IMG/VR virus record: IMGVR_UViG_3300030095_003343
Location: 1-44,636 of that record
Strand: one strand, 5' to 3'
DNA length: 44,636 bases
Source: a virus
Taxonomy: Duplodnaviria > Caudoviricetes
Shown piece after piece: positions 20-29,227 of this stretch (the stretch's first letter is position 1; every line of letters begins with the position of its first letter). The position numbers and the translations under genes are program-made. The notes under the pieces were generated by a model. The model was not told the origin of the DNA. It did no database searches and saw only the letters and a list, made by a program, of their open reading frames with translations.

Positions 20-90
20 GAAACCCTTACGGGTTTCATTGTATTGGCATGTTATGCATGCCCGTACATTGAAATGCATAAGCACTTCAA
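20..90 (+). promoter_or_regulatory. Structured intergenic element E0 (overlapping 1:2 / 2:3 / 3:4 hairpins) upstream of ORF 123
   Basis: GAAACCC-TTAC-GGGTTTC (20-37); long stem TTTCA.TGTA..GGCATG / CATGCC..TACA.TGAAA (34-74); TTGAAATGC-ATAA-GCACTTCAA (69-90). Followed by GAGGAACTAACAACATG. Confidence 0.7.
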
Positions 91-122
91 TCAAACTCAA
101 ACCAACGTGAGGAACTAACAAC

Positions 123-371
123 ATGTCTACGAACGATTCTTTCAATGTCGATAGCAACGGAGTCAAGCTTTCCATGTGCGGTGACCATGGAGGCATGGCT
201 GCTGTTAGTCGAGGCGACTTCGACTTCGCCCTTAACATTGGCGATGCGATTCAACACAGCGACTACTACGAGATCAGACTGAACGATGTCTGGTATCGAG
301 CAGTCATTGCGATCTCGCCTAACGCACCGCACGTCAATCACTACGATCCCATCGACCCCGATGAGGACTGA
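123..371 (+). CDS. Hypothetical early protein, 82 aa
   Basis: ATG with GAGG RBS, acidic C-terminus, flanked by structured elements. Confidence 0.75.
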   Translation: MSTNDSFNVDSNGVKLSMCGDHGGMAAVSRGDFDFALNIGDAIQHSDYYEIRLNDVWYRAVIAISPNAPHVNHYDPIDPDED

Positions 372-382
372 CATAGGCTGAC

Positions 383-470
383 TGTTTCAACATAGAGGGC
401 GCACGCCTAACAGCGTGTGCCCTTCATTGTTGATGCATGAAGTATCAACACAACGAGGTTAACTAACATG
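383..470 (+). repeat. Hairpin-RBS repeat family A, copy A1
   Basis: TGTTTCAACATAGAGGGCGCACGC-CTAACA-GCGTGTGCCCTTCATTGTTGATGCA, then TGAAGTATCAACACAACGAGGTTAACTAAC-ATG. Aligns with 824, 2021 and 3340. Confidence 0.9.
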
Positions 471-818
471 AAGAAGATCAACATCGACATCCAGACCGTT
501 GGCGGACGCAAGACCATCGAAGCGTGTCTGCCTAACGTAAAGAGCCGACTCGCTGTGCATCGAACGACCAGCGTGAGTGCTGGCCTAACGAAGGACGATG
601 GATGGACCGTCACTCACATCGCCAGCGGCATCGCTGTGAATCGCAAGATGCGAACCAAAGCGGATGCACTCCGCCTAGCACGAGCCTTCGCAAATGAACC
701 GGAGTGGGATCTGATCGGAGAGAATGGTGACATCTCCAAATTCCCTCGGTCTATTAGGCGAGCGATTCTCGCATTCGCAGAGAACATTAAATACGACCGA
801 CCACTCGTTAGGTTCTAA
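468..818 (+). CDS. Hypothetical early protein, 116 aa
   Basis: ATG at the end of A1 with GAGG RBS; LAVHR...WTVTHIASG motif of a kind common in small phage proteins. Confidence 0.8.
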   Translation: MKKINIDIQTVGGRKTIEACLPNVKSRLAVHRTTSVSAGLTKDDGWTVTHIASGIAVNRKMRTKADALRLARAFANEPEWDLIGENGDISKFPRSIRRAILAFAENIKYDRPLVRF

Positions 819-823
819 CCTAC

Positions 824-911
824 TGTCTCAACATAGAAGGCACACACCTAATAGTCTGTGCCTTTTATTGTTGATGCATAAAGTATCAACGCAACGAGGT
901 GAACTAACATG
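824..911 (+). repeat. Hairpin-RBS repeat family A, copy A2
   Basis: TGTCTCAACATAGAAGGCACA...TGTGCCTTTTATTGTTGATGCATAAAGTATCAACGCAACGAGGTGAACTAAC-ATG. Confidence 0.9.
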
Positions 912-1124
912 AGTATTGATGACCTTACGACCGAAGAGTGCATGACCCTTGACAATGAGACGCTTGAACTTCTCAATAAACATAGCGTGCAGGAGCGACA
1001 AGCTTTCGACTGGCACACGGCACTTGCTATGTGCAGCCAGTACTCAATCGAATCCGCAGATGGCTCCACCTTTAATGAGTATGTCGAGGATGATTTTAAT
1101 AACTCCGACGAACTCTTTCAGTAG
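909..1124 (+). CDS. Small highly acidic early protein, 71 aa
   Basis: ATG at the end of A2; D/E-rich with very few K/R. Confidence 0.75.
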   Translation: MSIDDLTTEECMTLDNETLELLNKHSVQERQAFDWHTALAMCSQYSIESADGSTFNEYVEDDFNNSDELFQ

Positions 1125-1151
1125 ACACCACCACCAACACGGAGAACTAAC

Positions 1152-2009
1152 ATGACTACTCGTAGCATCGACATCGACAACCTTCCGAGCAAAGCATTCG
1201 TAATCAAATCGATACGAGAGCAGTGGCATAACATTGTCGCAACGTCTGGATGCATCTCGGATGCAGAAGGATTCCTACCAGAAAGTACGATCAAGATATT
1301 AGGCGCATCGTACAAAACAGAGAAGAGTCTGAATGAACATGCATTCGAGGATGCGATGGGCAGGCTGTCCGCAGTGGTATACCTAGCACCAGCGGATCTA
1401 TCGGGTCGCGACGTGTGCCCATGCCGGACTAAGGAATGCACGATCCTATGCTTAGGCCGAACGTCTGGGCGCATGGTGATGACTCCTGTTAAGCAGTCGA
1501 TGGTATGGAAAACGGCACTGCGCTTCGGCGCACCGGATCTTTACTTCACGCTGTTATGCATAGAGATCAAAGCCTTGATTAAGAAAGCTAGGAAGCTTGG
1601 CCTAGCACCGAGGGTTAGGCTCGATGGCACATCGGACATCGGAGACGCCGAGAAGCTTTGCGAATTGTTTCCTGACTGCGGCTTCTACGAGTACACAAAG
1701 ATTGCTAGGCGAGCGCACCGCTGGCTCGACAAGCAGCCTAACCTTCGGGTGGCTCTGTCATTCACTGGCTACAACAAGACCGAGTGCATCGAATACATCA
1801 ACCGAGGTGGAGTGGTTGCAGTGGCGACTGACCTAACACGACACGATGCGAAGCCTTCAACTCATTGGGGTATCGATGTGATCGATGGGGACAAGCATGA
1901 CGATGTCAGTGCAGACCCTCGCGGATCTATCCGCATGCTTTCTTGGAAGGGTCCGCGCACCGGGCTTGATGTTGCTGGGGTATTCGCAGAACGAATCAAG
2001 GCTGCATAA
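1152..2009 (+). CDS. GP88-like / radical-SAM-like Cys-cluster phage protein, 285 aa
   Basis: GGAGAACTAAC RBS; motifs YLAPA..SG..VCPCRTKECTILCL, RLDGTSD, FYEYTK, VIDGDKHD, recognised from memory of the GP88-like family. Confidence 0.7.
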   Translation: MTTRSIDIDNLPSKAFVIKSIREQWHNIVATSGCISDAEGFLPESTIKILGASYKTEKSLNEHAFEDAMGRLSAVVYLAPADLSGRDVCPCRTKECTILCLGRTSGRMVMTPVKQSMVWKTALRFGAPDLYFTLLCIEIKALIKKARKLGLAPRVRLDGTSDIGDAEKLCELFPDCGFYEYTKIARRAHRWLDKQPNLRVALSFTGYNKTECIEYINRGGVVAVATDLTRHDAKPSTHWGIDVIDGDKHDDVSADPRGSIRMLSWKGPRTGLDVAGVFAERIKAA

Positions 2010-2020
2010 CAATACATTGA

Positions 2021-2109
2021 TGTGACAACGTAGGAGGCACATGCCGTTAGGCGTGTGCCTCTTATCGTTGGTGCAACGAAGTATCGACGCAACGAGGTGA
2101 ACTAACATG
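2021..2109 (+). repeat. Hairpin-RBS repeat family A, copy A3
   Basis: TGTGACAACGTAGGAGGCACATGCC-GTTA-GGCGTGTGCCTCTTATCGTTGGTGCAACGAAGTATCGACGCAACGAGGTGAACTAAC-ATG; compensatory changes relative to A1/A2. Confidence 0.9.
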
Positions 2110-2349
2110 AAGCTCACATACTGGTACGCAGAATGCCTTAACGATTCAGAATGCTACTCCATCAGGGAGAAGACAAAGAGCGCAGCCATCGCAGAGAAGG
2201 CAAGTCGCCACAACCCTGAAGACTATGGGCCAGTCATCAAGGTGACTGTCGAATACGACAGCGCGTTCAATCTAATGAAGGAGTGCAGCGACGAGTTCAG
2301 TATGCACTGGGAAGCACAGGCAACTCTTGCCATCAACGAGGAGAACTAA
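2107..2349 (+). CDS. Hypothetical early protein, 80 aa
   Basis: ATG at the end of A3. Confidence 0.75.
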   Translation: MKLTYWYAECLNDSECYSIREKTKSAAIAEKASRHNPEDYGPVIKVTVEYDSAFNLMKECSDEFSMHWEAQATLAINEEN

Positions 2350-2350
2350 C

Positions 2351-2764
2351 ATGAGTATCAAACGAGTAGACTTTGAGTACGCACTTAGCAAGGCGATCAG
2401 TGGAGCGATAATTGAGTTCTGCAATAAGAAGAAATGCGACCAGCCTGCAATCGATGCGCTGGTGGATGAGGCATGGCAATGCCTCAATGGAAAATCGCCC
2501 CACGCTTTGCAGCGCAAGCGTCGGGCGATCATCGAATGTGGGCAATCAGTTCACCCAGCGATTGCAGTGGTGAAGGATTACTTGCCCTCCAACTACACCG
2601 CCAAGGAAAGAATCGCTGGCTGGACATTGAGCGGCTACGCGGGAGCGTGCATCGAGATCGAAGGCTACGACATCGCTGGCTGGACACTCGATGACTATGT
2701 CATCCCTCGCCTAGCATCAGGCTTGATAGTTGCGACTGAGGTTTTTGACAATGACGAAGACTGA
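2351..2764 (+). CDS. Hypothetical protein with GYDIAGWTLDDYVIPRLASG C-terminal motif
   Basis: Start moved to ATG 2351 after GAGGAGAACTAAC; internal IAGWTL duplication. Confidence 0.75.
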   Translation: MSIKRVDFEYALSKAISGAIIEFCNKKKCDQPAIDALVDEAWQCLNGKSPHALQRKRRAIIECGQSVHPAIAVVKDYLPSNYTAKERIAGWTLSGYAGACIEIEGYDIAGWTLDDYVIPRLASGLIVATEVFDNDED

Positions 2765-2906
2765 AGCTGAAGCAAAGGCGGAACGCCTCAACGAACATGT
2801 TGGGTTGTTCTGCACCGTGACAAGGATCCTGCCTGTTAGTCAGGATCCAATCGTTCCGGGTGATGAGGGATGGGATGTTCTTGTCTCTGTCACCGTGGCT
2901 GATTAA
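2751..2906 (+). CDS. Small hypothetical protein, 51 aa (not in ORF track)
   Basis: Hand-translated MTKTEAEAKAERLNEHVGLFCTVTRILPVSQDPIVPGDEGWDVLVSVTVAD*; GAGGT RBS at about 2738. Confidence 0.6.
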   Translation: MTKTEAEAKAERLNEHVGLFCTVTRILPVSQDPIVPGDEGWDVLVSVTVAD

Positions 2907-3064
2907 CTAACGGGCTAGCTGATCACTAGTCCACCCACTTCGGAGCGACGGCACTGCTCCTACAAGAGAAAGGATGTTCACTTTGATTGATTCTAGGATT
3001 CGCATTGGCAAGTGCGGATCCCATGAATTTTTCAACTAACGCAGCACCAACGTGGAGAATGAAA

Positions 3065-3331
3065 ATGAATCTGTATCTGATCAAACGCAATGACCCGGCA
3101 GACGAGATCGACTACGACGAGTTCGTAGGTCATGTGATCGCAGCGCGTAACGTGAAGGATGCTAGGCGCTTTGCTGCTGACGAGCAGAGGCTCGACGAGT
3201 CACTGCGACGGACATGGCTCACGTCAAAAGAGGATAGACTTTGTTACCCGTGCTTTTCGACCGCCACTCTACTCGCGTCCGGCGTTGACCTTGAAGAAGG
3301 GATCGTTCTCTCTGACTTCAATGCGGGCTAG
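3065..3331 (+). CDS. Hypothetical early protein (MNLYLIKR...YDEFVGHVIAA...EGIVLSDFNAG)
   Basis: Start moved to ATG 3065 on RBS spacing; resembles a widespread small phage family ending in FNAG. Confidence 0.75.
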   Translation: MNLYLIKRNDPADEIDYDEFVGHVIAARNVKDARRFAADEQRLDESLRRTWLTSKEDRLCYPCFSTATLLASGVDLEEGIVLSDFNAG

Positions 3332-3339
3332 TAGCTAGA

Positions 3340-3406
3340 TGTTTCAACATAGAAGGCACACTCCATTAGGCGTGTGCCTTTTATTGTTGATGCACTTCGT
3401 ATCAAC
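3340..3406 (+). repeat. Hairpin repeat family A, copy A4
   Basis: TGTTTCAACATAGAAGGCACACTCC-ATTA-GGCGTGTGCCTTTTATTGTTGATGCACTTCGTATCAAC. Confidence 0.9.
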
Positions 3407-3432
3407 TAACGCAGCACCAACGTGGAGATAGA

Positions 3433-3792
3433 ATGTACAACTATCGAATGGTCAAAGACGGCAACTCATTCTCTGTCATGGAAGTTTGGTATGACGACTC
3501 GGGCAAGCCGGAAAGCTTTACCCCTGTCCGATTATCAGAACCCATCCATGAAGAACTTCTGAATGTAAAGTGCGAAGGCTGTGCCACTGACAAAGAGAAA
3601 GATGATGCTGCTCGTTTCCAGATCATCAAAGAACTAACAATGATCATAAACGATCTATCGAATGATGCGGCACCACTGATCAACAAGCGACAACAACAGG
3701 ATGTTAGGGTGGGGTCGAGCCCAGAGCAGATGGAAAGGTTAAGACAAGAGTTGTCAAACCAGCAGGGTAGCTGCAAAGGGGATGAATCATGA
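3433..3792 (+). CDS. Hypothetical protein, 119 aa
   Basis: GGAG RBS; N-terminal YNYRMV..EVWYDDSGKP motif; C-terminal peptide homologous to part of the 5276-6196 product. Confidence 0.75.
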   Translation: MYNYRMVKDGNSFSVMEVWYDDSGKPESFTPVRLSEPIHEELLNVKCEGCATDKEKDDAARFQIIKELTMIINDLSNDAAPLINKRQQQDVRVGSSPEQMERLRQELSNQQGSCKGDES

Positions 3793-3878
3793 TCGAATCG
3801 ATCATCACTGTCACTGCGTGCATGGCATTGTCGTATGCCCTCTGCCGCTTGGCTTCCAACAACTTCAAGGGGTATTAG
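3789..3878 (+). CDS. Putative 29-aa hydrophobic peptide
   Basis: ATGA overlap with the upstream stop; MIESIITVTACMALSYALCRLASNNFKGY*; abuts the next ATG. Confidence 0.4.
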   Translation: MIESIITVTACMALSYALCRLASNNFKGY

Positions 3879-4031
3879 ATGCCTGACATCAGAGTCACTG
3901 ACATCTTCAACTTCGTCGATGCGTATGCCAAGGCGGCAGGCGTTAAGATGACCGAAGAGTTGAGAGAGTGTGCCGCGAACGTCGTAGCCCATGACCTCAA
4001 CAAGGCTGGGGTGTACGTCGAACCTAGTTAG
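3879..4031 (+). CDS. Small hypothetical protein, 50 aa (not in ORF track)
   Basis: MPDIRVTDIFNFVDAYAKAAGVKMTEELRECAANVVAHDLNKAGVYVEPS*; AAGGGG RBS; fills the gap before element B1. Confidence 0.6.
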   Translation: MPDIRVTDIFNFVDAYAKAAGVKMTEELRECAANVVAHDLNKAGVYVEPS

Positions 4032-4037
4032 TAGAAC

Positions 4038-4104
4038 GAAGGGCGAACTCCCTTCCATCTATCGGTGTCCATTCATCAGTAGATGGAAAGGCGTTGTGTC
4101 TTTC
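4038..4104 (+). repeat. Structured element family B, copy B1
   Basis: GAAGGG-CGAACT-CCCTTC; long stem TTCCATCTA...TAGATGGAA; GAAAGGC-GTTGT-GTCTTTC. Homologous to 8794-8865. Confidence 0.8.
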
Positions 4105-4132: not shown

Positions 4133-5233
4133 ATGAAACTTTCTACAGATAACCTGAAGCCCCTATTGGAGTGCTCCTTCAGAGCGCAACTTGATCCTGA
4201 CAAGGTCAAGCTTAACAAGCAGCCCATCCTCTGCCTGCATGGCAACCCCGGCGTAGGAAAGACGGGAGTAGTGAAGGCTGTGTCGGACACGCTTGCCGAC
4301 ACGGTCGCGACTAACGAGTTCATCGGTTCGTCATACGGGACCGAGGACTTGGGCATCGGCGTACCTAACGCCGCAACCAAGCTGATCGATCAGTACAGCA
4401 CTGGCATTTTCTTGGGGAAGTTCCCCGGAACCGAGGATGCCGATCTCATCGTGATCTTCTTCGATGAGCTGGACAAGTACAGTGGTGACGTTCAAGCCAT
4501 GCTTCTCTCTCTCATCGAGAGCAGGAAGTTCCATGGCGAACTGATCGATCCTCGAATTGTCTTTGTCTGCGCCATGAACCCTGTCGATGGTGGCGGTGAG
4601 TCGGATCTCATTGCTCCATTGCATGAGCGCCTAACACACATCTCTTGCGAAGTTGACCCCGAAGCTTGGTGTGAGCTTGCAATGCAAAGCAATGTGCATC
4701 CTGCTGTTATCGGGTTCATCCACTGGCAGTGCTGTGGTAGTCACTCCGCTGCGGCGCTCAAGTCCTTGTCGAACTTTGACCCGGACACTTCTGACCTGAA
4801 CACCTCTTCGCCTCGCGCATGGTTCAAGGCGTCCACGTTCATCGAGGATGACTTGCCCCGTCCGCTTCTTCGCGAAGCACTGGCCGGAACTATTGGTGCC
4901 GTTGTCACTGAACAGTTCATGTCCTTCATGGACACATACCTAACAAACCCTCCGCCGACTCTCGATGAGATCATCGAGGATCCTCAGGGTGCAACCCTGC
5001 CTTCTGATCATGCGACTACGTTCGCTGTGATCTCCATGCTCGTTAGTTATGTGGCGAGCAAGGGAAAGCGGGCACGCAACAAGGACGCCATCAAGACGTT
5101 CGTTGTCGATGCCATCGTTGAGTACATCGAGCGGATCCCACATGAGGCTCACCGACTCGTCGCTATGCAGCAGTGCATGAAGGCGAACCCGCTGTTCGCA
5201 GAGAACAAGTCCGACATTCTGGCACGTTGCTAG
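4133..5233 (+). CDS. MoxR-type AAA+ ATPase
   Basis: Walker A GNPGVGKT, Walker B IFFDELD, sensor CAMNP, LHERLTH, SPRAW; ATG 4133 follows GAGG RBS. Confidence 0.9.
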   Translation: MKLSTDNLKPLLECSFRAQLDPDKVKLNKQPILCLHGNPGVGKTGVVKAVSDTLADTVATNEFIGSSYGTEDLGIGVPNAATKLIDQYSTGIFLGKFPGTEDADLIVIFFDELDKYSGDVQAMLLSLIESRKFHGELIDPRIVFVCAMNPVDGGGESDLIAPLHERLTHISCEVDPEAWCELAMQSNVHPAVIGFIHWQCCGSHSAAALKSLSNFDPDTSDLNTSSPRAWFKASTFIEDDLPRPLLREALAGTIGAVVTEQFMSFMDTYLTNPPPTLDEIIEDPQGATLPSDHATTFAVISMLVSYVASKGKRARNKDAIKTFVVDAIVEYIERIPHEAHRLVAMQQCMKANPLFAENKSDILARC

Positions 5234-5275
5234 TTCGTCGAACCCATCTGGACAAAATCAACTAGGAGTACAGAC

Positions 5276-6196
5276 ATGTCCAATACCAGTACTAGGATCA
5301 ACATCGAGGCAGGTAGCCTCCCTGATCGTTTCGTTCTTCGCAGGTTCAAGAGCGGCACGATGAGCGGATGGCGAACCATGAAGGAAGCTGGCCTAACTGT
5401 TGCCGAGGTTCATCAGATCTCTGATGCACGTCGAGCCAAGTCCAGCATCAACATCTTCGCAACGCCTGAACTGGAGGCGACGAAGAAGCACATGAAGCGT
5501 TGTCGGAACTTCTTCGACCACAGCAACATGTCGTGGGGAGACAACTGGCGACTAATCGCCAAGAGTAGGCTTGATCAGCAGTGGGAATGGGAGGACTCGG
5601 TTAAGACCGAGAACATGAACCTGTACCGTCTGGCGATTGAGTCTGTTAGGGATCGCAAGGAGCGAGACCGAATCGAACTGAGTGAGGGCGGGAAGGCCAG
5701 CCTCTACAATCCGGGCCTGTACCCAAGCGAGGAAGTGATGCTGGACTCGTATGTGTTCAGGTTTGAACCCGGCGTTGTCCCTGATCCGTCACGCGATGTT
5801 AGGTCTGGGTCAAGCCATGAGCAGACTGAGCGGTTCCGCAATGAGCTTGCAGACTCTTACAATCGTCAGGCTCGCGATGCCCACAACACGATGCTGAAGC
5901 GCATCATGGAAGAGGCTTCTCACGTCGAAGAACGGTGTGATGGTTACACCGGGAAGAGGGCAGGGTCTTTCAATGACACCCTGATCCCTCGCCTGATCAA
6001 CATTGCTCAGTTGGTTAAGACTAACAACATCTACGAGGATGATGATCTCGACAACCTCTGCTCTCAGGTGATGGATGATTACGCAAACATCACCACCAAA
6101 GATCTCAGAGAGAACGAGGATCTTCGGAGGGAGGCGAGCGGCAAGGCTCGCGACATCAAGGCTGCTCTCAACAAGCTGAAGTCCAGCAAGTACTAG
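5276..6196 (+). CDS. DUF3150-like helical protein of the MoxR-VWA module, 306 aa
   Basis: AGGAG RBS; YPS...PDP..DVR and NI..D.DL...DLREN..LR pattern; position between ATPase and VWA gene. Family call is from memory. Confidence 0.6.
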   Translation: MSNTSTRINIEAGSLPDRFVLRRFKSGTMSGWRTMKEAGLTVAEVHQISDARRAKSSINIFATPELEATKKHMKRCRNFFDHSNMSWGDNWRLIAKSRLDQQWEWEDSVKTENMNLYRLAIESVRDRKERDRIELSEGGKASLYNPGLYPSEEVMLDSYVFRFEPGVVPDPSRDVRSGSSHEQTERFRNELADSYNRQARDAHNTMLKRIMEEASHVEERCDGYTGKRAGSFNDTLIPRLINIAQLVKTNNIYEDDDLDNLCSQVMDDYANITTKDLRENEDLRREASGKARDIKAALNKLKSSKY

Positions 6197-6203
6197 TCTT
6201 GCA

Positions 6204-6240
6204 CTAAGGGGGGAGGGGCGTGGTGCCCCTCCCCTCTTGG
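6204..6240 (+). promoter_or_regulatory. Strong GC-rich intergenic hairpin without U-tract
   Basis: CTAAGGGGGGAGGGGCG-TGG-TGCCCCTCCCCTCTTGG between the DUF3150-like and VWA genes. Confidence 0.55.
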
Positions 6241-6264
6241 GCTTCCGACAACATGGAGAATCAA

Positions 6265-7575
6265 ATGATCAACCGACTTACCGATGAGCAACTCATTAGA
6301 TACTTCTGCAAAGTAGTATCCGACAATGGCTTTCTGGCACCCGTCGCATTTCGCCTAACTGTAATGACGGCTAGCGAATGGAATGGCAGGCCCGTCAAGA
6401 CAGCAGCAACGAACGGGGAGTACCTGTTAGTTAACCCTTATTGGGCTACGGATCTCACTCCTGCTGAGATCATGGGAGTGATACTCCATGAGATCTGGCA
6501 CGTCGCTGCTGGACATCCTTGGCGGGGGGTTGGGTACCCGCCTGACCAATCTAACATCTGCATGGATCATGAGGTTAACGGCTTCTGCCTCGACTCCGGT
6601 GCAACCCTTCCTAAAGATCGGATCTGGGATCCCAAGTACCGTGATTGGAAATTCGAGCGCATCTATGAGGATCTCTTTGGAACCCCTCCTGAGGAGAACG
6701 ATGATGACTTGATCGTTGAGCCTCCCGAAGGGGATGACAAGGGTGAGCAATGTGAGGAAGGGAAGCAACCTGAACAGGGTGAACAGGGTGACGAGTCAGG
6801 GCAAAGTGAAGACGCGGGTACTGGCGAGTCAGGTGCCGAAGGCCCCGCTTGGGGTGAGGTTTGGGATGCTAGTCACGAAGACGGCACGCCACTTACTGAA
6901 GAGGAGTGCCAGCAGGCACTGGGTGATCTTGCTGAGGAGATCATCCGAGGCGAGACTGATCGCATCCGAGCGGGCGATCAGGATGGGTACGGTGGTAGCG
7001 CGGTGATTGATCGTGTTATGCGTCCGAAGGCGAACTGGGCGAAGCGCATCTCTGCACTGGTCAAGAAGACCGGCAAGGTCATCGGCTCTACCTATCGCAG
7101 GCCAAGCCGGAGGACGATGGCGACCGGAGTCATCTCTCCGCACAAGATCAAGTCGAGCATCGACGAGATCGTGTTCGCAGTGGATGTCTCGTACTCGGTA
7201 GACATGGTTAGGCTGCGAGTCTTCTTCGATCATTTCGAGCGACTGCGTGAGACTATCTTCATCAAGAAGATTCACATCGTCCCGTTCACCACTGTTGCAA
7301 GCAACGATGCAGTGCAGGTAGTGAGGCATGGGCAGAAGCTTCCTCGCAAGTTCCAGATCGGTGGAGGCACTTCCTTCGCTCCGATCTTCAACTGGCAGAG
7401 ACGTTATGCCAAGCGGGCAGAGATGGTGATTGTCTTCACCGATCTCGGCTCCAACGATTACGGGCGCAAGCCGAAGTGCCCAGTGCTTTGGGTGTCCTCT
7501 GATCCAATCAACAATTACAATCGACCTCCGTTTGGTTCGGCAGTCGAGATCGATACAACTAGGAGGGGTTACTGA
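6265..7575 (+). CDS. Metallopeptidase + VWA domain protein (DUF2201-like)
   Basis: TAATNG, HEIWH (HEXXH), acidic G/E linker, MIDAS-like DVSYS, GGGTSF, VFTD; start moved to ATG 6265 after GGAG. Confidence 0.85.
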   Translation: MINRLTDEQLIRYFCKVVSDNGFLAPVAFRLTVMTASEWNGRPVKTAATNGEYLLVNPYWATDLTPAEIMGVILHEIWHVAAGHPWRGVGYPPDQSNICMDHEVNGFCLDSGATLPKDRIWDPKYRDWKFERIYEDLFGTPPEENDDDLIVEPPEGDDKGEQCEEGKQPEQGEQGDESGQSEDAGTGESGAEGPAWGEVWDASHEDGTPLTEEECQQALGDLAEEIIRGETDRIRAGDQDGYGGSAVIDRVMRPKANWAKRISALVKKTGKVIGSTYRRPSRRTMATGVISPHKIKSSIDEIVFAVDVSYSVDMVRLRVFFDHFERLRETIFIKKIHIVPFTTVASNDAVQVVRHGQKLPRKFQIGGGTSFAPIFNWQRRYAKRAEMVIVFTDLGSNDYGRKPKCPVLWVSSDPINNYNRPPFGSAVEIDTTRRGY

Positions 7576-8793: not shown

Positions 8794-8865
8794 GAAGGGC
8801 TGACGCCCTTCCATGTATGCATGTTAGGTTGTAACATGTGTACATGGATAGGCGTCTTGCTTATC
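8794..8865 (+). repeat. Structured element family B, copy B2
   Basis: GAAGGGC-TGAC-GCCCTTC; long stem TCCATGTATGCATGTTA-GGTTG-TAACATGTGTACATGGA; GATAGGC-GTCTT-GCTTATC. Confidence 0.8.
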
Positions 8866-9778: not shown

Positions 9779-9855
9779 GCACCCGTAGCTCAGTTGGATA
9801 GAGCGACTGCCTTCTAAGCAGTGGGTCGCAGGTTCGAGTCCTGCCGGGTGCGCCA
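9779..9855 (+). tRNA. tRNA-Arg, anticodon UCU, with encoded CCA
   Basis: Acceptor GCACCCG/CGGGTGC; D arm GCTCAGTTGGATAGAGC; anticodon arm ACTGC-CTTCTAA-GCAGT; T arm GCAGG-TTCGAGT-CCTGC; G discriminator then CCA. Confidence 0.97.
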
Positions 9856-10938: not shown

Positions 10939-11248
10939 GAGGGAGAGTAATTTGTTTTCGGTAATGAACACGGAAAAAGAAATCGTGATGCAACTAGATT
11001 CTATCCGACCGAGCGAATCAGATGGCGAGGAGGAGTGCCAACAGCCAGAGTCAATACTGGTATGCTCAGATGGTAGTGTCATCGTTGGATTAGGATCGAC
11101 TTTGATTGATGTTATTTACTGGTATCCATGCTTTGAGATGATCCCATACTTTTTGGAATCACAATTTGACATAGACCAATATGTGGCCTGCGAACCAACA
11201 GTGAAGGAGTTATCGACTCATCACTTATTAGTCGGACCACTTCAGTAA
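10910..11248 (+). CDS. Hypothetical acidic protein (start uncertain)
   Basis: ORF track; ends immediately before the terminator. Confidence 0.5.
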   Translation: MAGISACRIKRESNLFSVMNTEKEIVMQLDSIRPSESDGEEECQQPESILVCSDGSVIVGLGSTLIDVIYWYPCFEMIPYFLESQFDIDQYVACEPTVKELSTHHLLVGPLQ

Positions 11249-11249
11249 G

Positions 11250-11288
11250 AAAAGGCCCCACCAGTTAATTCTGGTGGGGCCTTTTTTT
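11250..11288. terminator. Bidirectional rho-independent terminator
   Basis: AAAAGGCCCCACCAG-TTAATT-CTGGTGGGGCCTTTTTTT between convergent genes. Confidence 0.9.
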
Positions 11289-11289
11289 G

Positions 11290-11814
11290 TTAGAACTGAG
11301 AAGCAATAACCCTTCTTGGGTCTCGGTAACGATCAGTCCTGTAGTGCCTAGACAAAGTCTTTAACGATGGAGCCAAGAGCTTCGACGCAACTTGAGCAAA
11401 CTCCTTCCGTTCAGATTTCTTGCGAGGGAACTGATGGGCAGAGTCGATGAACTTCATCAGTATGTTCGCCCTTCTCTCACCGCAACCATTGACCACGGAC
11501 CTATAGGCATTCGAGAATGCCATCCGCCTCTCAGCCATATGGTTGGCTGACTTCTTAGCTGGCTGATGGACGCCATCAGAGTCTAGAGAAGGACTTGATA
11601 TGTACATGCCAGACTTAGAGACATCCTCCATGAATAACACGGAAGCCTCATGCAGAGGCTGCTCTATCAAAAACTCAACAAACATAACATCAAAGATTGT
11701 CTGGTCGGAAACCTTAACCCTCTTGATGTACCCCTTTATATCGACAGACTCCTCAGTCAATAAGAACTTATCGCGCTGTTCGTCGTTGACTAGTATCTCA
11801 GATATCAAAGTCAT
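11290..11814 (-). CDS. Hypothetical protein, about 174 aa
   Basis: 3' part of ORF 11290-11991; likely ATG at 11814 overlapping the helicase stop region. Confidence 0.65.
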   Translation of the reverse strand: MTLISEILVNDEQRDKFLLTEESVDIKGYIKRVKVSDQTIFDVMFVEFLIEQPLHEASVLFMEDVSKSGMYISSPSLDSDGVHQPAKKSANHMAERRMAFSNAYRSVVNGCGERRANILMKFIDSAHQFPRKKSERKEFAQVASKLLAPSLKTLSRHYRTDRYRDPRRVIASQF

Positions 11815-13579
11815 CGAAGTTTTCTTGCGGCGCTTTCGAGAACTCCTTGGCATGCACACCCCCACTGTAGTCAACTGAGAAATTACCGTTATGCGGATTG
11901 AAGTGAAGCTCACAGTCCCCAACGGAACCAATCCAAGGGAATCGAGCCTTCCAGCACCTGAGCTTGGAACTACCTTCATCCATTCGATCAACCGTTAACC
12001 CTGCATCAGCAATGTTGAAGAACGCCGACGAACCTGCGACATCGTAACCACTGGGAGATGGTGTACTCCCATCCGGTGCCCGATACATCTTGGTTGGGTG
12101 AGCGCATAATATCACTGCACAGTCATGCTCCTCTGCGAATTGCTTCAAGCCAACAAGAAGTTTGTTGATCTGCAACACACCCTCTACGCCATCCTCTGCC
12201 GTAGTGAGGAAGTTGTACGGATCAATCTGGACAATGCGAGCCCCTGTCCTCATGATAGAGATTGCAGCCCTCTCAAGGACAGAACTAATGGAGGTATCCG
12301 ATGTATCCAGAAAGGTGAAGTTGTTCTGGACCCAGTCGAGGGCAATGTCTAACTCACCCTTCGACATCTTGTACTCACCGTGGAATGGCTTGCCCAAGTA
12401 GACTGCCGCCATCTGTAATACATGTATCTCGGTTGGAGTCTCCGCTGAGAGGATGACTGAGCCCCACCCGGTACGACTAGCAAGATTGACTGATAGCCAT
12501 GTAAGAAATGAACTCTTACCTGAGCCGGGTATGCCAGTCATAATCGTTAGGGTTTGCGGGTTCACACGATAGATCTTGTCCAGATCAGCGATGCCCATCG
12601 AGATACCCCTATCCATACCTCCCTCGAATAGCGAGACAGCAGACTCTCTGAATTCCTTAGCATCCCTAATGCCACTGACAGGCCAAGGCGTAGCTCTGAT
12701 CAACGTACTAGCTAATGCGTCCTTGCCCAGCCTGACGAGAACATCATTAGCATCCTTGCACCCGTCATCATAAGAGACAACCCAGCACTTACCCCTGCCG
12801 ACCCTTCTTACAATCTCCTCGGCAAGGAGAACCCCCGGCTCATCGGAGTCCGTCGCGATGATCACTCTGTCTGCGATCTCAATCTTATCCCTAGCACTCA
12901 GTAAGTACTCGTACTTCCTAGACGAGGTGCCTGTGCTGGGCTTATTGGGAGCGCCGCTAGGAACACTTACGGCGTACACGCCTACCTCTCGATAAGAGAG
13001 CGCGTCCACCTCCCCTTCGCAGATAACCAAGTCACCACCATCGAAGTTCTCGATGCCCCACAGTTCCTTGGCCGCGCCTGTCTGACTAAAGTTCTTCTCC
13101 GTGTCCCGCCACTTAACAGCAGTACTCCCGTCGGAGTGGTTGTACTTGAATCCAATGCATTCAACTTCCTCCCCTCGACCTCTCATCCAAACATTGGAAC
13201 AGACCAAGTCCGCGAGCGAGGCAGTCTCCTCAGAGATCGCTCGCTCTTTAGATAACCACTCAATGTACTCACTGGAGATAGGTAGATACTCAACATCCTC
13301 CCCGTCTTTCTTTGATGCATTGTCTATAGAAATAACATTCGTCTCTTTCAAGCTGTATTCGTATTCCATATCTGCCCCCCTACCAAAGTTAACCCTCCCT
13401 TTCTCGTCGCAATGATGACAGAGGAATAGTGCGTGATCATTCTCGACCCTCACGCTCAACGTCCTCTCCCCCTGCTTTCTCCTGTCTGGACCGCAAGAAG
13501 GACAAGCGGACCTTACGTTACGATTCGTTCCTTGAGGAATGATACTACTGTTAATAAACTCAGCGATTGCGCTGTTCAA
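11798..13579 (-). CDS. Bifunctional DNA primase-helicase (T7 gp4/Twinkle-like)
   Basis: Zn-binding CPSC...CHHC; TOPRIM ICEGEVDALS, DSDEPG, KDAND; SF4 helicase GIPGSGKS, IDPYN, AHPTK, KARF. Confidence 0.93.
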   Translation of the reverse strand: MNSAIAEFINSSIIPQGTNRNVRSACPSCGPDRRKQGERTLSVRVENDHALFLCHHCDEKGRVNFGRGADMEYEYSLKETNVISIDNASKKDGEDVEYLPISSEYIEWLSKERAISEETASLADLVCSNVWMRGRGEEVECIGFKYNHSDGSTAVKWRDTEKNFSQTGAAKELWGIENFDGGDLVICEGEVDALSYREVGVYAVSVPSGAPNKPSTGTSSRKYEYLLSARDKIEIADRVIIATDSDEPGVLLAEEIVRRVGRGKCWVVSYDDGCKDANDVLVRLGKDALASTLIRATPWPVSGIRDAKEFRESAVSLFEGGMDRGISMGIADLDKIYRVNPQTLTIMTGIPGSGKSSFLTWLSVNLASRTGWGSVILSAETPTEIHVLQMAAVYLGKPFHGEYKMSKGELDIALDWVQNNFTFLDTSDTSISSVLERAAISIMRTGARIVQIDPYNFLTTAEDGVEGVLQINKLLVGLKQFAEEHDCAVILCAHPTKMYRAPDGSTPSPSGYDVAGSSAFFNIADAGLTVDRMDEGSSKLRCWKARFPWIGSVGDCELHFNPHNGNFSVDYSGGVHAKEFSKAPQENFDDFDI

Positions 13580-13865
13580 TATTCGCCACCTCCATAGTTA
13601 ACCTCTTCATCATATCTGTACATTGATTCGCGATACTAGACCTCGCTGGGCCTGAAATGTCATCGACCCTCATGAAGACATCTTCAACCCATTCCATTTC
13701 CCAGCCAGCAACTTCACACATCATGTTGAAGTCGTCGCTATGCACCCACACCATTACTTTCTCTTGAACTTCTCCTGATCCATTGCCCAAATCCTTGAGT
13801 GCGAAATGGATGACACGCCGAGCGAGTCTTGAAATTCCGGCAGTGGGCGCACAATTATCTCGCAT
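13560..13865 (-). CDS. Hypothetical protein, 101 aa
   Basis: ORF track; VI..ALKD...W..S.DF..MCEVAG pattern seen in small phage proteins. Confidence 0.6.
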   Translation of the reverse strand: MRDNCAPTAGISRLARRVIHFALKDLGNGSGEVQEKVMVWVHSDDFNMMCEVAGWEMEWVEDVFMRVDDISGPARSSIANQCTDMMKRLTMEVANIEQRNR

Positions 13866-27403: not shown

Positions 27404-29227
27404 CTAAGGAGTACCGGGAACGGTAAGATTCACAGTGGGCGGTCTTCCACCAAGTGTAAGTAGCTGCCGTTCTAAGGCTAATATCTGAGCATTGATCTGA
27501 TTCTGCTCATCTACCTCAGGCCCCATCCCCAATCGAGACCGAAGGCCATCGATCTTAGCTTGAATAGCGTCAGACGTTTCCCTTAGCTCCGTCTGAGACA
27601 TTCTGGCATTAGCACCATACACTCGGGAAGTCACGTCCCCGATAGCGCGTCTATGCAGGGAACGACTATTGGCATCAGCAGCTTCCCTGGCATCCGCGGC
27701 TTTCGCCAAGGATACCAAAGCAGCAACCCGGTTCTCGTTGTAATCTTGCATCTGGCTCGCGCGGAACCGCTCTCTCTCCTCTATGGCTTTTATTCGCGCC
27801 TGACGGGCTCCAAGTATGCTCCTGTTCCGTTCCGCCTCTGCTGCCGCACCAAACTGCGCCCTCTGATCCCTGCTTTGCATCAAAGCTTGTCGGGAAGCAA
27901 GTCGGGTCTTGTTGTATTCCCTTTGGGCAGCAGCATCATCCCCGTATACCTTGCCGATACCGCCAGCCCCAGCGGATAGACCTTCAGCAAACGTAGGGGC
28001 ACCTAAAAGTCCTTGGCCTAACGCCATAAGGGCTCTGCCCCTAGTGACATCAGGATTAGGAGCCGGGTTCAGTTCTTCAAGCATCGCCTCAAACTTGTCG
28101 AGGTCGCTGTAATCTGGTTTTGTAGGTTTGATTTCAGTAAGCATTTTATTGAAATCATCGAGTTTGGTGGAGTACTTCACATCAGATGGGGATGTCTCGA
28201 CAATTTCCTTGAGGGAAGCAAGGTCTGTTTTAAACGACGGAGGCGTGTATTCACCGATAGATTCCTCTACTTCCGCGTAAAGATCCTTAAAGGAAGGTGG
28301 ATCTCCTTCACCAGTAAAAACAGGAAGGAGATCTTGACTAGCAGTAGCTACCCCAGATCCCTCAGGAGTATCGAGACGTTTAACTCTAGGTGTCAAAGGG
28401 ACAAGAACTTCTTCCTCTTCCTCCCTTGAAACCTCCGGAACCGAAACACCTAAATCTTTTTTCAACGCATCTCTTCGTGACCTCTCCGCCTGTCCACGCT
28501 CTTCCGAAGCATCCAGCATCCTTCCAACCGAAGGGCCAAGATTAAAAAGGCGAGCAGAAGGACTGTAAAAACCTTCTTCACGTCTTGGCCTAGTGCCGGG
28601 TTCGATCAAAGCAGAAAGTTCTTGAACCTGTCTAGCCATTTCCGGGGTCCTCAACCCGGCATCTCTCGCTCTCTTCAATTCCTTAAGTCTTCTGAAAACC
28701 TCTTTTTCATCAGCGCTACCCGGCTCAACAATTCGGCTTAAGCCTAAAATACCGCCGCCGCGCTGCGTTCCACGGATCGGCCGTCCCAGTTTCATGACAT
28801 CACCATCATTAAATCCACGGACAACACCACCATCCCTCATCATCTGCATGGGCATGCCCTGCATAGGCATATCCATAGGAGGCCCCATCTCAGGAGGCAT
28901 ACCTTGCATAGCCATTTCCTGAGGAGGCATACCTTGAGGAGCGCCCATACCTGGGGGCATCATCCCTGAAGCTCCCATGTCTGGAGGCATCATCTCTGGA
29001 GGCATGGCCTGACCTACGCCGGAAAACTTGGCGAGCATCTCTTCAGCCATGGTGTTAGTTGGAGCTTGAGCTTGCTGTTCAGCAAACCTTTCTCGCATAT
29101 CCGCACGCCTGTTCAACTCGGTAAACACAAGAAACTGTGGATACTGACCAGAAGGGTTTTCCAATTCTCTTGCGAGAAAATCATCAGGTAGACCCTTCAG
29201 ATCATCTTCTTGCCGGATGATGCTCAT
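27404..29227 (-). CDS. Internal virion/ejection protein, 607 aa
   Basis: N-terminal DDLKGLPD..L..E...PSG.YPQFLV..EL.RR; M/P/G/Q-rich tract; MRDGGVV motif; position in the ejection cluster. Confidence 0.7.
   Translation of the reverse strand: MSIIRQEDDLKGLPDDFLARELENPSGQYPQFLVFTELNRRADMRERFAEQQAQAPTNTMAEEMLAKFSGVGQAMPPEMMPPDMGASGMMPPGMGAPQGMPPQEMAMQGMPPEMGPPMDMPMQGMPMQMMRDGGVVRGFNDGDVMKLGRPIRGTQRGGGILGLSRIVEPGSADEKEVFRRLKELKRARDAGLRTPEMARQVQELSALIEPGTRPRREEGFYSPSARLFNLGPSVGRMLDASEERGQAERSRRDALKKDLGVSVPEVSREEEEEVLVPLTPRVKRLDTPEGSGVATASQDLLPVFTGEGDPPSFKDLYAEVEESIGEYTPPSFKTDLASLKEIVETSPSDVKYSTKLDDFNKMLTEIKPTKPDYSDLDKFEAMLEELNPAPNPDVTRGRALMALGQGLLGAPTFAEGLSAGAGGIGKVYGDDAAAQREYNKTRLASRQALMQSRDQRAQFGAAAEAERNRSILGARQARIKAIEERERFRASQMQDYNENRVAALVSLAKAADAREAADANSRSLHRRAIGDVTSRVYGANARMSQTELRETSDAIQAKIDGLRSRLGMGPEVDEQNQINAQILALERQLLTLGGRPPTVNLTVPGTP

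Follow-up and report, generated by a model that had tools for sequence, protein, structure and literature searches.

The early mRNA of bacteriophage T7 is cut by RNase III at stems that lie between genes, the mRNA stabiliser of the Bacillus subtilis phage SP82 needs a 5' stem-loop, and the PeSL elements of T4-type phages promote modular shuffling. A repeated hairpin element, referred to below as family A, resembles each of these in part. It precedes several small genes in a stretch of 44,636 nucleotides from an uncultured member of the Caudoviricetes (IMG/VR record IMGVR_UViG_3300030095_003343), and this whole stretch is called the window. Comparison of sequences and predicted folds suggests that family A is probably a site of RNase III processing in which a 5' refold is optional, with gene swapping as a secondary role.

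Looped stems of T7 and SP82 are cut once, on the downstream side (PMC1935012), as is predicted for family A, and the SP82 element stabilises mRNA (PMC7509114, PMC11805744). In the 5' untranslated region of Staphylococcus aureus cspA, RNase III cleaves a long hairpin, and a smaller 5' hairpin on the product extends the half-life from less than 2.5 to more than 16 min (PMC3386247). The likeness to what is predicted for family A lies in this RNase III-made product with a shorter, stabilising 5' hairpin; cspA, however, is one cellular leader, whereas family A is a repeated intergenic module in a phage polycistron. T4-type PeSL are repeated intergenic expression signals that act as crossover points around small accessory genes (PMC2839356, PMC4122927). 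Gene content also varies around family A and crossovers occur within the repeat, but this is not exclusive to the element; and while a PeSL consists of a terminator and a sigma-70 promoter, no U-run is conserved in family A and nothing in it matches a promoter.

A repeated element with a conserved long stem

The window contains four copies of family A. In each, a long hairpin (H1) and a shorter second hairpin (H2) share one arm:

383..470, + strand: copy A1; H1 383-437, predicted cut 427/428, H2 428-450, Shine-Dalgarno (SD) sequence 455-459, start codon ATG at 468
824..911, + strand: copy A2; H1 824-878, predicted cut 868/869, H2 870-890, SD 896-900, ATG 909
2021..2109, + strand: copy A3; H1 2021-2075, predicted cut 2065/2066, H2 2066-2089, SD 2094-2098, ATG 2107
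3340..3435, + strand: copy A4; H1 3340-3394, predicted cut 3384/3385, H2 3386-3406, SD 3423-3427, ATG 3433

A preliminary description of the window had placed these copies at 383, 824, 2021 and 3340, and they do begin there, 11, 5, 11 and 8 nucleotides past stop codons. All lead into ribosome-binding sites, three finishing GAGGT(G/T)AACTAAC-ATG and A4 finishing GTGGAGATAGAATG. The two folds are mutually exclusive, as described, since both use the arm YGTTGRTGC, which in H2 pairs with a downstream GTATCRAC. Compared with shuffled sequences, the 55-nucleotide H1 has z scores of -7.3, -6.8, -8.4 and -9.5 in A1 to A4, and none of 200 shuffles equals it in any copy. The predicted energies of H1 and H2 differ by about 1 kcal/mol in A1, A2 and A4 and by 2-3 kcal/mol in A3. 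The SD sequence lies outside both helices, in a leader that extends 40-48 nucleotides beyond the predicted cut and has a CA-rich spacer between H2 and the SD.

A covariance model (R1) was built from six family A copies and applied to loci found by pattern scans of viral and metagenome contigs. It identifies 52 copies scoring at least 41 bits, 40 of them distinct, in the window and in 31 of the 37 related loci searched. Six pattern loci with no strong R1 match (L050, L059, L067, L082, L083, L086) were set aside as chance matches, and four others (L060, L071, L078, L084) as repeats of the same contigs. Several loci are nearly identical to the window (L048, 99.2% identity; L065, 99.8%), so that the counts of copies are counts of sequences and not of events.

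In a MAFFT alignment of the 38 distinct copies used for the covariation analysis, 94.9% of the H1 cells are paired, and 8 of its 23 pairs and 37 cells are changed on both sides. Of 500 shuffles, none reaches this number of cells and 51 reach this number of pairs; controls in which the stem is slid are 31-50% paired. The search pattern itself fixed part of H1, but the stem also covaries in columns free of the pattern: 18-48 (AU 28, GC 10), 14-54 (AU 33, GC 5), 19-47 (AU 29, GC 7, GU 2) and 23-43 (AU 25, GC 9, GU 4), with no cell broken. In column 15-51 U-A and U-G interchange, 19 against 18, which favours an RNA of the + strand. The stem substitutions quoted in the preliminary description are present, and so is the asymmetry it had noted, by which the wobbles work only on the + strand: R1 scores 83-106 bits on the + strand and 31-40 bits on the - strand. 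Family A is a real, repeated element that conserves its base pairs.

The element looks restricted to one clade, as it was found neither in distant loci nor in cultured phages. R1 finds no copy in 36 more distant loci carrying the gene for the GP88 family protein (best score 14.5 bits), nothing significant in the early or terminase regions of phages DSL-LC04, HTVC023P and 023Pt_psg01, and no copy in five pattern matches from GTDB; BLASTN of A1 against cultured phages gives only four short chance matches. At the gathering score, Rfam reports only a tRNA in the window and no match in 32 related loci, with no riboswitch, ribozyme or leader family of that database matching the element. A literature search, with most subscription papers outside its scope, found no description of it.

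Likeness to T7 and T3 sites and the second hairpin

Run unfiltered on 90,501 bases from six named phage regions, R1 gives 12 matches at E<=5. All six of its matches in the 14 kb of T3 and T7 fall on RNase III stems, in the register that puts the predicted cut just before YGUUG. They are R0.3, R0.5 and R1.1 of T3, which are among the five RNase III stems annotated in NC_003298, and the T7 stems before genes 0.3, 0.5 and 1.3. The 3'-arm ends of the upper helix are alike: GTGGCCTTTAT, GTGGCCTTTGT and GTGGCCTTCGT in the T3 records, GTGCCTTTTAT, GTGCCCTTTGT and GTGCCCTTCAT in family A; the corresponding T7 stems have ends like those of T3. The setting is alike as well, the stems being long, intergenic, within the early gene block and shortly 5' of a ribosome-binding site.

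The T7 cut coordinates used here reportedly go back to Dunn and Studier in 1983; four of them coincide with motif matches in the T7 record. When the 11 nucleotides before the predicted cut are compared with the ends of five T7 sites, the 40 copies agree on average at 7.56 of 11 positions, against 5.8 or fewer in 12 other registers. A1, A2 and A4 are among only 10 of 44,625 window positions that score at least 8, with A1 the highest; A3 remains below 7.5.

The geometry of H1 is consistent with a substrate of RNase III. It has 23 pairs in two helical turns, with 11-14 pairs above the predicted cut, and for the Escherichia coli enzyme 11 pairs above the cut are the minimum (PMC1540722). According to the same source, one set of a proximal and a distal box specifies one cut, and a G-C pair beside the scissile bond blocks catalysis. 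The pair adjoining the predicted scissile bond (pb4) is A-U in 34 of 38 copies and G-C in none. In the lower half-site, where the stem is short and mismatched, the equivalent pair is C-G in 37 of 38. Family A also differs from the T7 and T3 signals (R0.3, R0.5, R1, R1.1 and R1.3). Six pairs above the cut it has G-C where they have U-G, its copies are near-identical repeats that move between genes, and the downstream refold is built into it, while a comparable hairpin is found at 1 of 10 T7/T3 sites.

The 3' arm of H2 is present in 34 of the 40 distinct copies. Among these 34, the arm occurs in 6 variants and the loop in 16. In A1 to A4, H2 is more stable than pairings with shuffled downstream sequence (p 0.001-0.022), and H2 starts at base 1 or 2 of the predicted 3' product. 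The 5'-end fold is predicted at a median of -10.0 kcal/mol with H2 and -4.0 kcal/mol in the alleles that have no H2. The SP82/SPO1-type trait, in which the 3' arm refolds into a 5'-terminal stem-loop before a strong ribosome-binding site, is predicted in 34 of 40 copies; it shows no significant covariation within family A but has support from the sister hairpins described below.

SPO1, like SP82 a phage of B. subtilis, offers a further parallel. It carries six repeated intergenic hairpins, which we take to be its mapped RNase III sites, and these have the same two-fold design with a 3' arm that re-pairs downstream. Their sequence is unrelated (R1 has no match in 13.5 kb of SPO1), and their predicted H2 is weaker (-4.7 to -7.5 kcal/mol; two of six at p<0.05). 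Such a refold may already have been described (Hue 1995, Stewart 2009, Sharp and Bechhofer 2005). As a separate observation, the SPO1 hairpins (locus L047) lie at 5839, 7149, 11817, 12239, 12445 and 12740, and the stretch with which the 3' arm can re-pair is GCUAC-like.

By combining these comparisons, it is possible to describe how the element may act. The early genes would be co-transcribed from upstream promoters. Host RNase III would then cut past the bulged U, at YGUUG or 2 nucleotides before it. Only one cut would be made, on the 3' arm, because the lower half-site has about nine pairs and a mismatch, with a C-G pair next to the would-be second cut. The upstream message would keep the upper stem as a 3' hairpin, and H2 would form at the new 5' end (predicted at about -10 kcal/mol), slowing decay that depends on that end. 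As a by-product, the homology of 55-90 base pairs between copies would serve as a crossover point at which small genes are swapped. The preliminary description had already suggested that cleavage of the long stem lets the downstream mRNA refold into a protective hairpin. This model is the best-supported reading, and by the comparison with T7 and T3 the predicted cut falls at or just ahead of the base with which H2 begins; the covariation claimed for H2, on the other hand, is not confirmed. No new mechanism would be involved, as every step has precedent.

Further hairpins and the weighing of alternatives

The four copies are not the whole set: the window has more long hairpins, of other sequence, at 20-91, 2983-3035, 4038-4104 and 8794-8865. 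In three of them the 5' arm can also form an upstream hairpin (H0):

20..125, + strand: site 0, which precedes the first of the early genes; long stem at 29-79, H0 20-37 (5' arm with upstream partner), H2 68-91 (3' arm with downstream partner)
2983..3035, + strand: long hairpin interrupted by a UA/CAU internal loop, 5' of the gene at 3065; no H2
4038..4104, + strand: type B hairpin, before the AAA ATPase gene; long stem, H0 4038-4055, H2 4086-4104
8794..8865, + strand: type B hairpin, before the DUF6011 gene; long stem, H0 8794-8811, H2 8847-8865

H2 of site 0 and of the type B hairpins at 4038 and 8794 has shuffle p values of 0.001, 0.013 and 0.026. In site 0, two H2 pairs are changed on both sides, in 6 cells (a number reached in 5 of 500 shuffles; 11 copies), and in the six type B copies all 42 H2 cells are paired (69 of 500 shuffles). 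H0 occurs in 11 of 11 copies of site 0 and in 6 of 6 of type B, with shuffle p values in the window of 0.008 for site 0 and 0.17 and 0.007 for type B; when sought in the window for family A it was not found (p 0.12-0.65). A scan of viral sequences gives no match for type B and one for site 0. In several relatives a family A copy stands directly 5' of the ATPase gene, where the window has type B. Two further observations concern these hairpins. That at 2983-3035 has the UA/CAU internal loop of A1 and is present also in L049, L052 and L065. In site 0 and type B, each of the lower arms has another partner available to it; this arrangement is kept in relatives and could cap both ends after a double cut.

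Several points weigh against reading family A as a processing site with a 5' refold. The R1 matches in T3 and T7 are individually non-significant (E 0.25-2.6) and are scored partly on the ribosome-binding site. With a shorter consensus, said to be that of Krinke and Wulff from 1990, the predicted register and that 2 nucleotides upstream tie at 4.58 of 6, so that the cut is placed only to within 2 nucleotides. The box rules of E. coli RNase III are only partly followed: position 2 of the proximal box is G-C in 10 of 38 copies, and 35 of 38 have C-G in place of U-G in the distal box, although the T7 stem before gene 0.5 likewise has C-G there. In place of the larger asymmetric loop of T7 and T3, which restricts cutting to one strand, family A has a one-nucleotide bulge (A2-A4) or a 2x3 loop (A1), which makes a double cut possible. 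The copies come from close relatives and not from independent events. The H2 3' arm is missing in 6 of 40 distinct copies (5 of 38 alignment rows), and the 2983 hairpin also has no H2. Within family A the covariation of H2 is not significant, a single cell being changed on both sides, as 357 of 500 shuffles also achieve (38 copies). In site 0 the H2 covariation comes from about three lineages, its pair count is reached by 405 of 500 shuffles, and the H2 arm of one lineage pairs better with the partner from another.

The result for H2 bears directly on the preliminary description, which had reported covariation of this hairpin in A3 and had itself named a lack of significant covariation as evidence against its proposal; within family A such a lack is what is found. 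In A3 the two-sided change is confined to the terminal pair, and all others are one-sided wobbles. The power of the test is low, however, because the 5' arm of H2 is locked by H1.

An alternative is that H1 is not cut by RNase III but forms a 3' barrier or a protein-binding site, for RNase III bound without cutting or for a phage protein, with a single-strand nuclease processing the message elsewhere. The element is tied more strictly to upstream than to downstream genes (conditional entropy 0.25 against 0.57 bit, n=111 each), which speaks for this alternative, and RNase III binding with no cleavage is known (PMC1540722). Moreover, some copies carry E. coli antideterminants, and the sister hairpins have little in common with the T7 11-mer (no more than 6.4 of 11; site 0, a weak match, 5.4 of 11). 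What a barrier leaves unexplained is the in-register likeness to T7 and T3, the absence of G-C beside the predicted cut, and an H2 that starts at that cut. This alternative is thus considered unlikely.

The preliminary description had also offered a switch module. In such a reading a ligand, a protein or an antisense RNA would choose between the two folds to control translation or processing of the next gene. Mutual exclusivity and the gap of about 1 kcal/mol in A1, A2 and A4 speak for a switch, but copies differ in the fold predicted to prevail: among 34 it is H2 in 9 and the long stem in 25, and in 6 of 40 the second fold is absent altogether. The SD lies outside both helices, and its predicted accessibility shifts between folds in no consistent direction (0.58/0.61, 0.55/0.24, 0.46/0.58 and 0.44/0.09 for A1 to A4). 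Nor is there a conserved unpaired core like that of an aptamer, or an Rfam match. A switch is therefore not supported and appears quite improbable; the evidence favours H2 as an optional module.

Alternatively, early transcription might be graded by the upper stem and its U-rich tail, acting as an intrinsic terminator or attenuator; terminators are also part of PeSL cassettes (PMC4122927). In 20 of 40 copies, up to 6 U occur among the 8 nucleotides after the GC-rich stem, and a terminator scanner called A1 terminator-like; it made no + strand call for A2-A4, and 12 of 40 copies have just 4 U and 8 of 40 just 5. U-to-C changes in the tail are matched by A-to-G changes on the 5' arm, which indicates that the pairing is conserved and not the U-run. 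In addition, the upper stem would not be disrupted by H2, and no copy contains a sigma-70-like promoter (5 sites in 11.5 kb against 10.3 expected). Termination is accordingly a highly improbable function of the element.

Variable gene neighbours and the early gene block

The element has a second aspect, the probable exchange of genes around it. Junctions were counted with heuristic open reading frame (ORF) calls and BLASTP families. The 35 junctions that contain the element link 23 distinct gene pairs, and 96 element-free junctions link 49, a count that takes in singletons and non-early genes. The 5' flank of the element tracks the upstream gene (0.68 against 0.38) and not the downstream gene (0.42 against 0.39), while the part after the stem tracks the downstream gene (0.72 against 0.39) and partly the upstream one (0.58 against 0.39). 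The relative L048 is 99.2% identical over window positions 31-2110, diverges inside A3, and continues with an H2-less arm and another gene. A joint from 407 to 883 with a hybrid element, in one set of contigs, was not counted, as its 30-letter side is just 85% alike.

Gene content between copies is thus variable in relatives, not fixed, and the role of recombination joint that the preliminary description had proposed stands in part: gene content varies around the copies, but the role is not specific to the element, because element-free junctions shuffle too. Of the 66 early starts that lack the element, 53 have a short CAAC-rich leader in common. Two kinds of joint are reused here, and the element is only one of them. 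That the repeats are mainly DNA joints of the PeSL kind, with folds that are incidental or form in single-stranded DNA, is the least probable alternative: the 23 gene pairs at 35 element junctions, the gene-tracking flanks, the divergence of L048 inside A3 and a phage-encoded Sak annealing protein agree with it, but compensatory changes that lower the homology between copies while preserving pairing, the U-A/U-G interchange that indicates RNA, and the shuffling and CAAC-rich leaders at element-free sites do not.

Some related observations were made. A short CA-rich leader with GGAG and AACTAAC (1125-1154, 2334-2353, 3032-3067) precedes most early genes, with or without a hairpin, and is the likely second joint. 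In L055, at 590-1172, two unrelated small genes stand in tandem, each behind a family A copy and each starting MSIDD, which suggests a crossover that carried the first codons. Near distant GP88 genes, L010 has repeat arrays with 50-60-nucleotide spacing in non-coding DNA 5' of the gene (335-781 and 3732-4054), and L012 has an array of 15-nucleotide units resembling pentapeptide repeats and one of 6-nucleotide units (12861-13375 and 13606-13821).

The window is a linear virus record, estimated as 76% complete. It codes for SU10-type adaptors, a 2780-residue LPD38 protein, a T7-like primase-helicase, Sak, RusA, GP88, an AAA ATPase and a DUF2201 protein, a gene set suggestive of a podovirus-like phage. 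The phage is not T7-like, and the record, at 76% completeness, shows no gene for an RNA polymerase. The terminase of a relative shares 51-58% identity with the terminases of HTVC023P, HTVC027P and DSL-LC04, and the primase has its best match at 34.5%. Small + strand genes begin at 123. In the relative L002 they are preceded by about 1.5 kb of non-coding DNA and divergent terminase genes, a layout from which they are taken to be the early block:

123..371, + strand: small early ORF of 82 residues; no Pfam or PHROG family
468..818, + strand: small early ORF of 116 residues; no family; the element is next in 5 of 7 occurrences
909..1124, + strand: small early ORF of 71 residues; no family; the element is next in 0 of 16 occurrences, with 7 different downstream neighbours
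1152..2009, + strand: GP88 family protein (PF17338); the element is next in 6 of 6 occurrences, followed by four different genes
2107..2906, + strand: three small ORFs (2107-2349, 2351-2764, 2751-2906) that no element separates
3065..3331, + strand: small ORF, phrog_5444 (unknown function)
3433..3792, + strand: ORF of 119 residues 3' of A4; no family
4133..7575, + strand: AAA ATPase (AAA_5), 306-residue protein and DUF2201 metallopeptidase/VWA protein; the shuffled early block ends with these conserved genes

The 51-residue ORF at 2751-2906 overlaps the 3' end of the 2351 gene and occurs in 12 loci, nearly always right behind that gene. The three genes at 4133-7575 are kept together in relatives, in at least two divergent versions. 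One tRNA-Arg(TCT) lies inside the early block, at 9779-9855. At 11245-11290, where + and - strand genes converge, a perfect GC-rich hairpin with an A-run on one side and a T-run on the other resembles a terminator that works in both directions. Repeats with a 15-nucleotide period at 28878-29005, within an ORF of 607 residues (27404-29227), encode a Met/Pro/Gly-rich repeat.

A broader and more tentative possibility, which we would not regard as likely, is that the early genes of this clade run on self-sealing RNA joints. One RNase III cut would cap both ends in family A, or both arms would refold after a double cut in site 0 and type B. The balance between H1 and H2 would set cutting efficiency and half-life, and alleles with and without H2 would be exchanged along with genes by recombination within the stem, so that each swap would bring a preset expression level.

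If family A is indeed a processing site with an optional refold, RNase III would punctuate the early mRNA of an uncultured podovirus clade that is not related to T7, and the signal itself would contain a refold that protects the end. It would also mean that signals for mRNA processing can serve gene shuffling, as has so far been reported for cassettes of promoter and terminator. The 40 natural alleles, some of them lacking H2, offer a ready series for testing how a 5' hairpin produced by processing adjusts mRNA lifetime, and family A alleles could serve as compact insulators.

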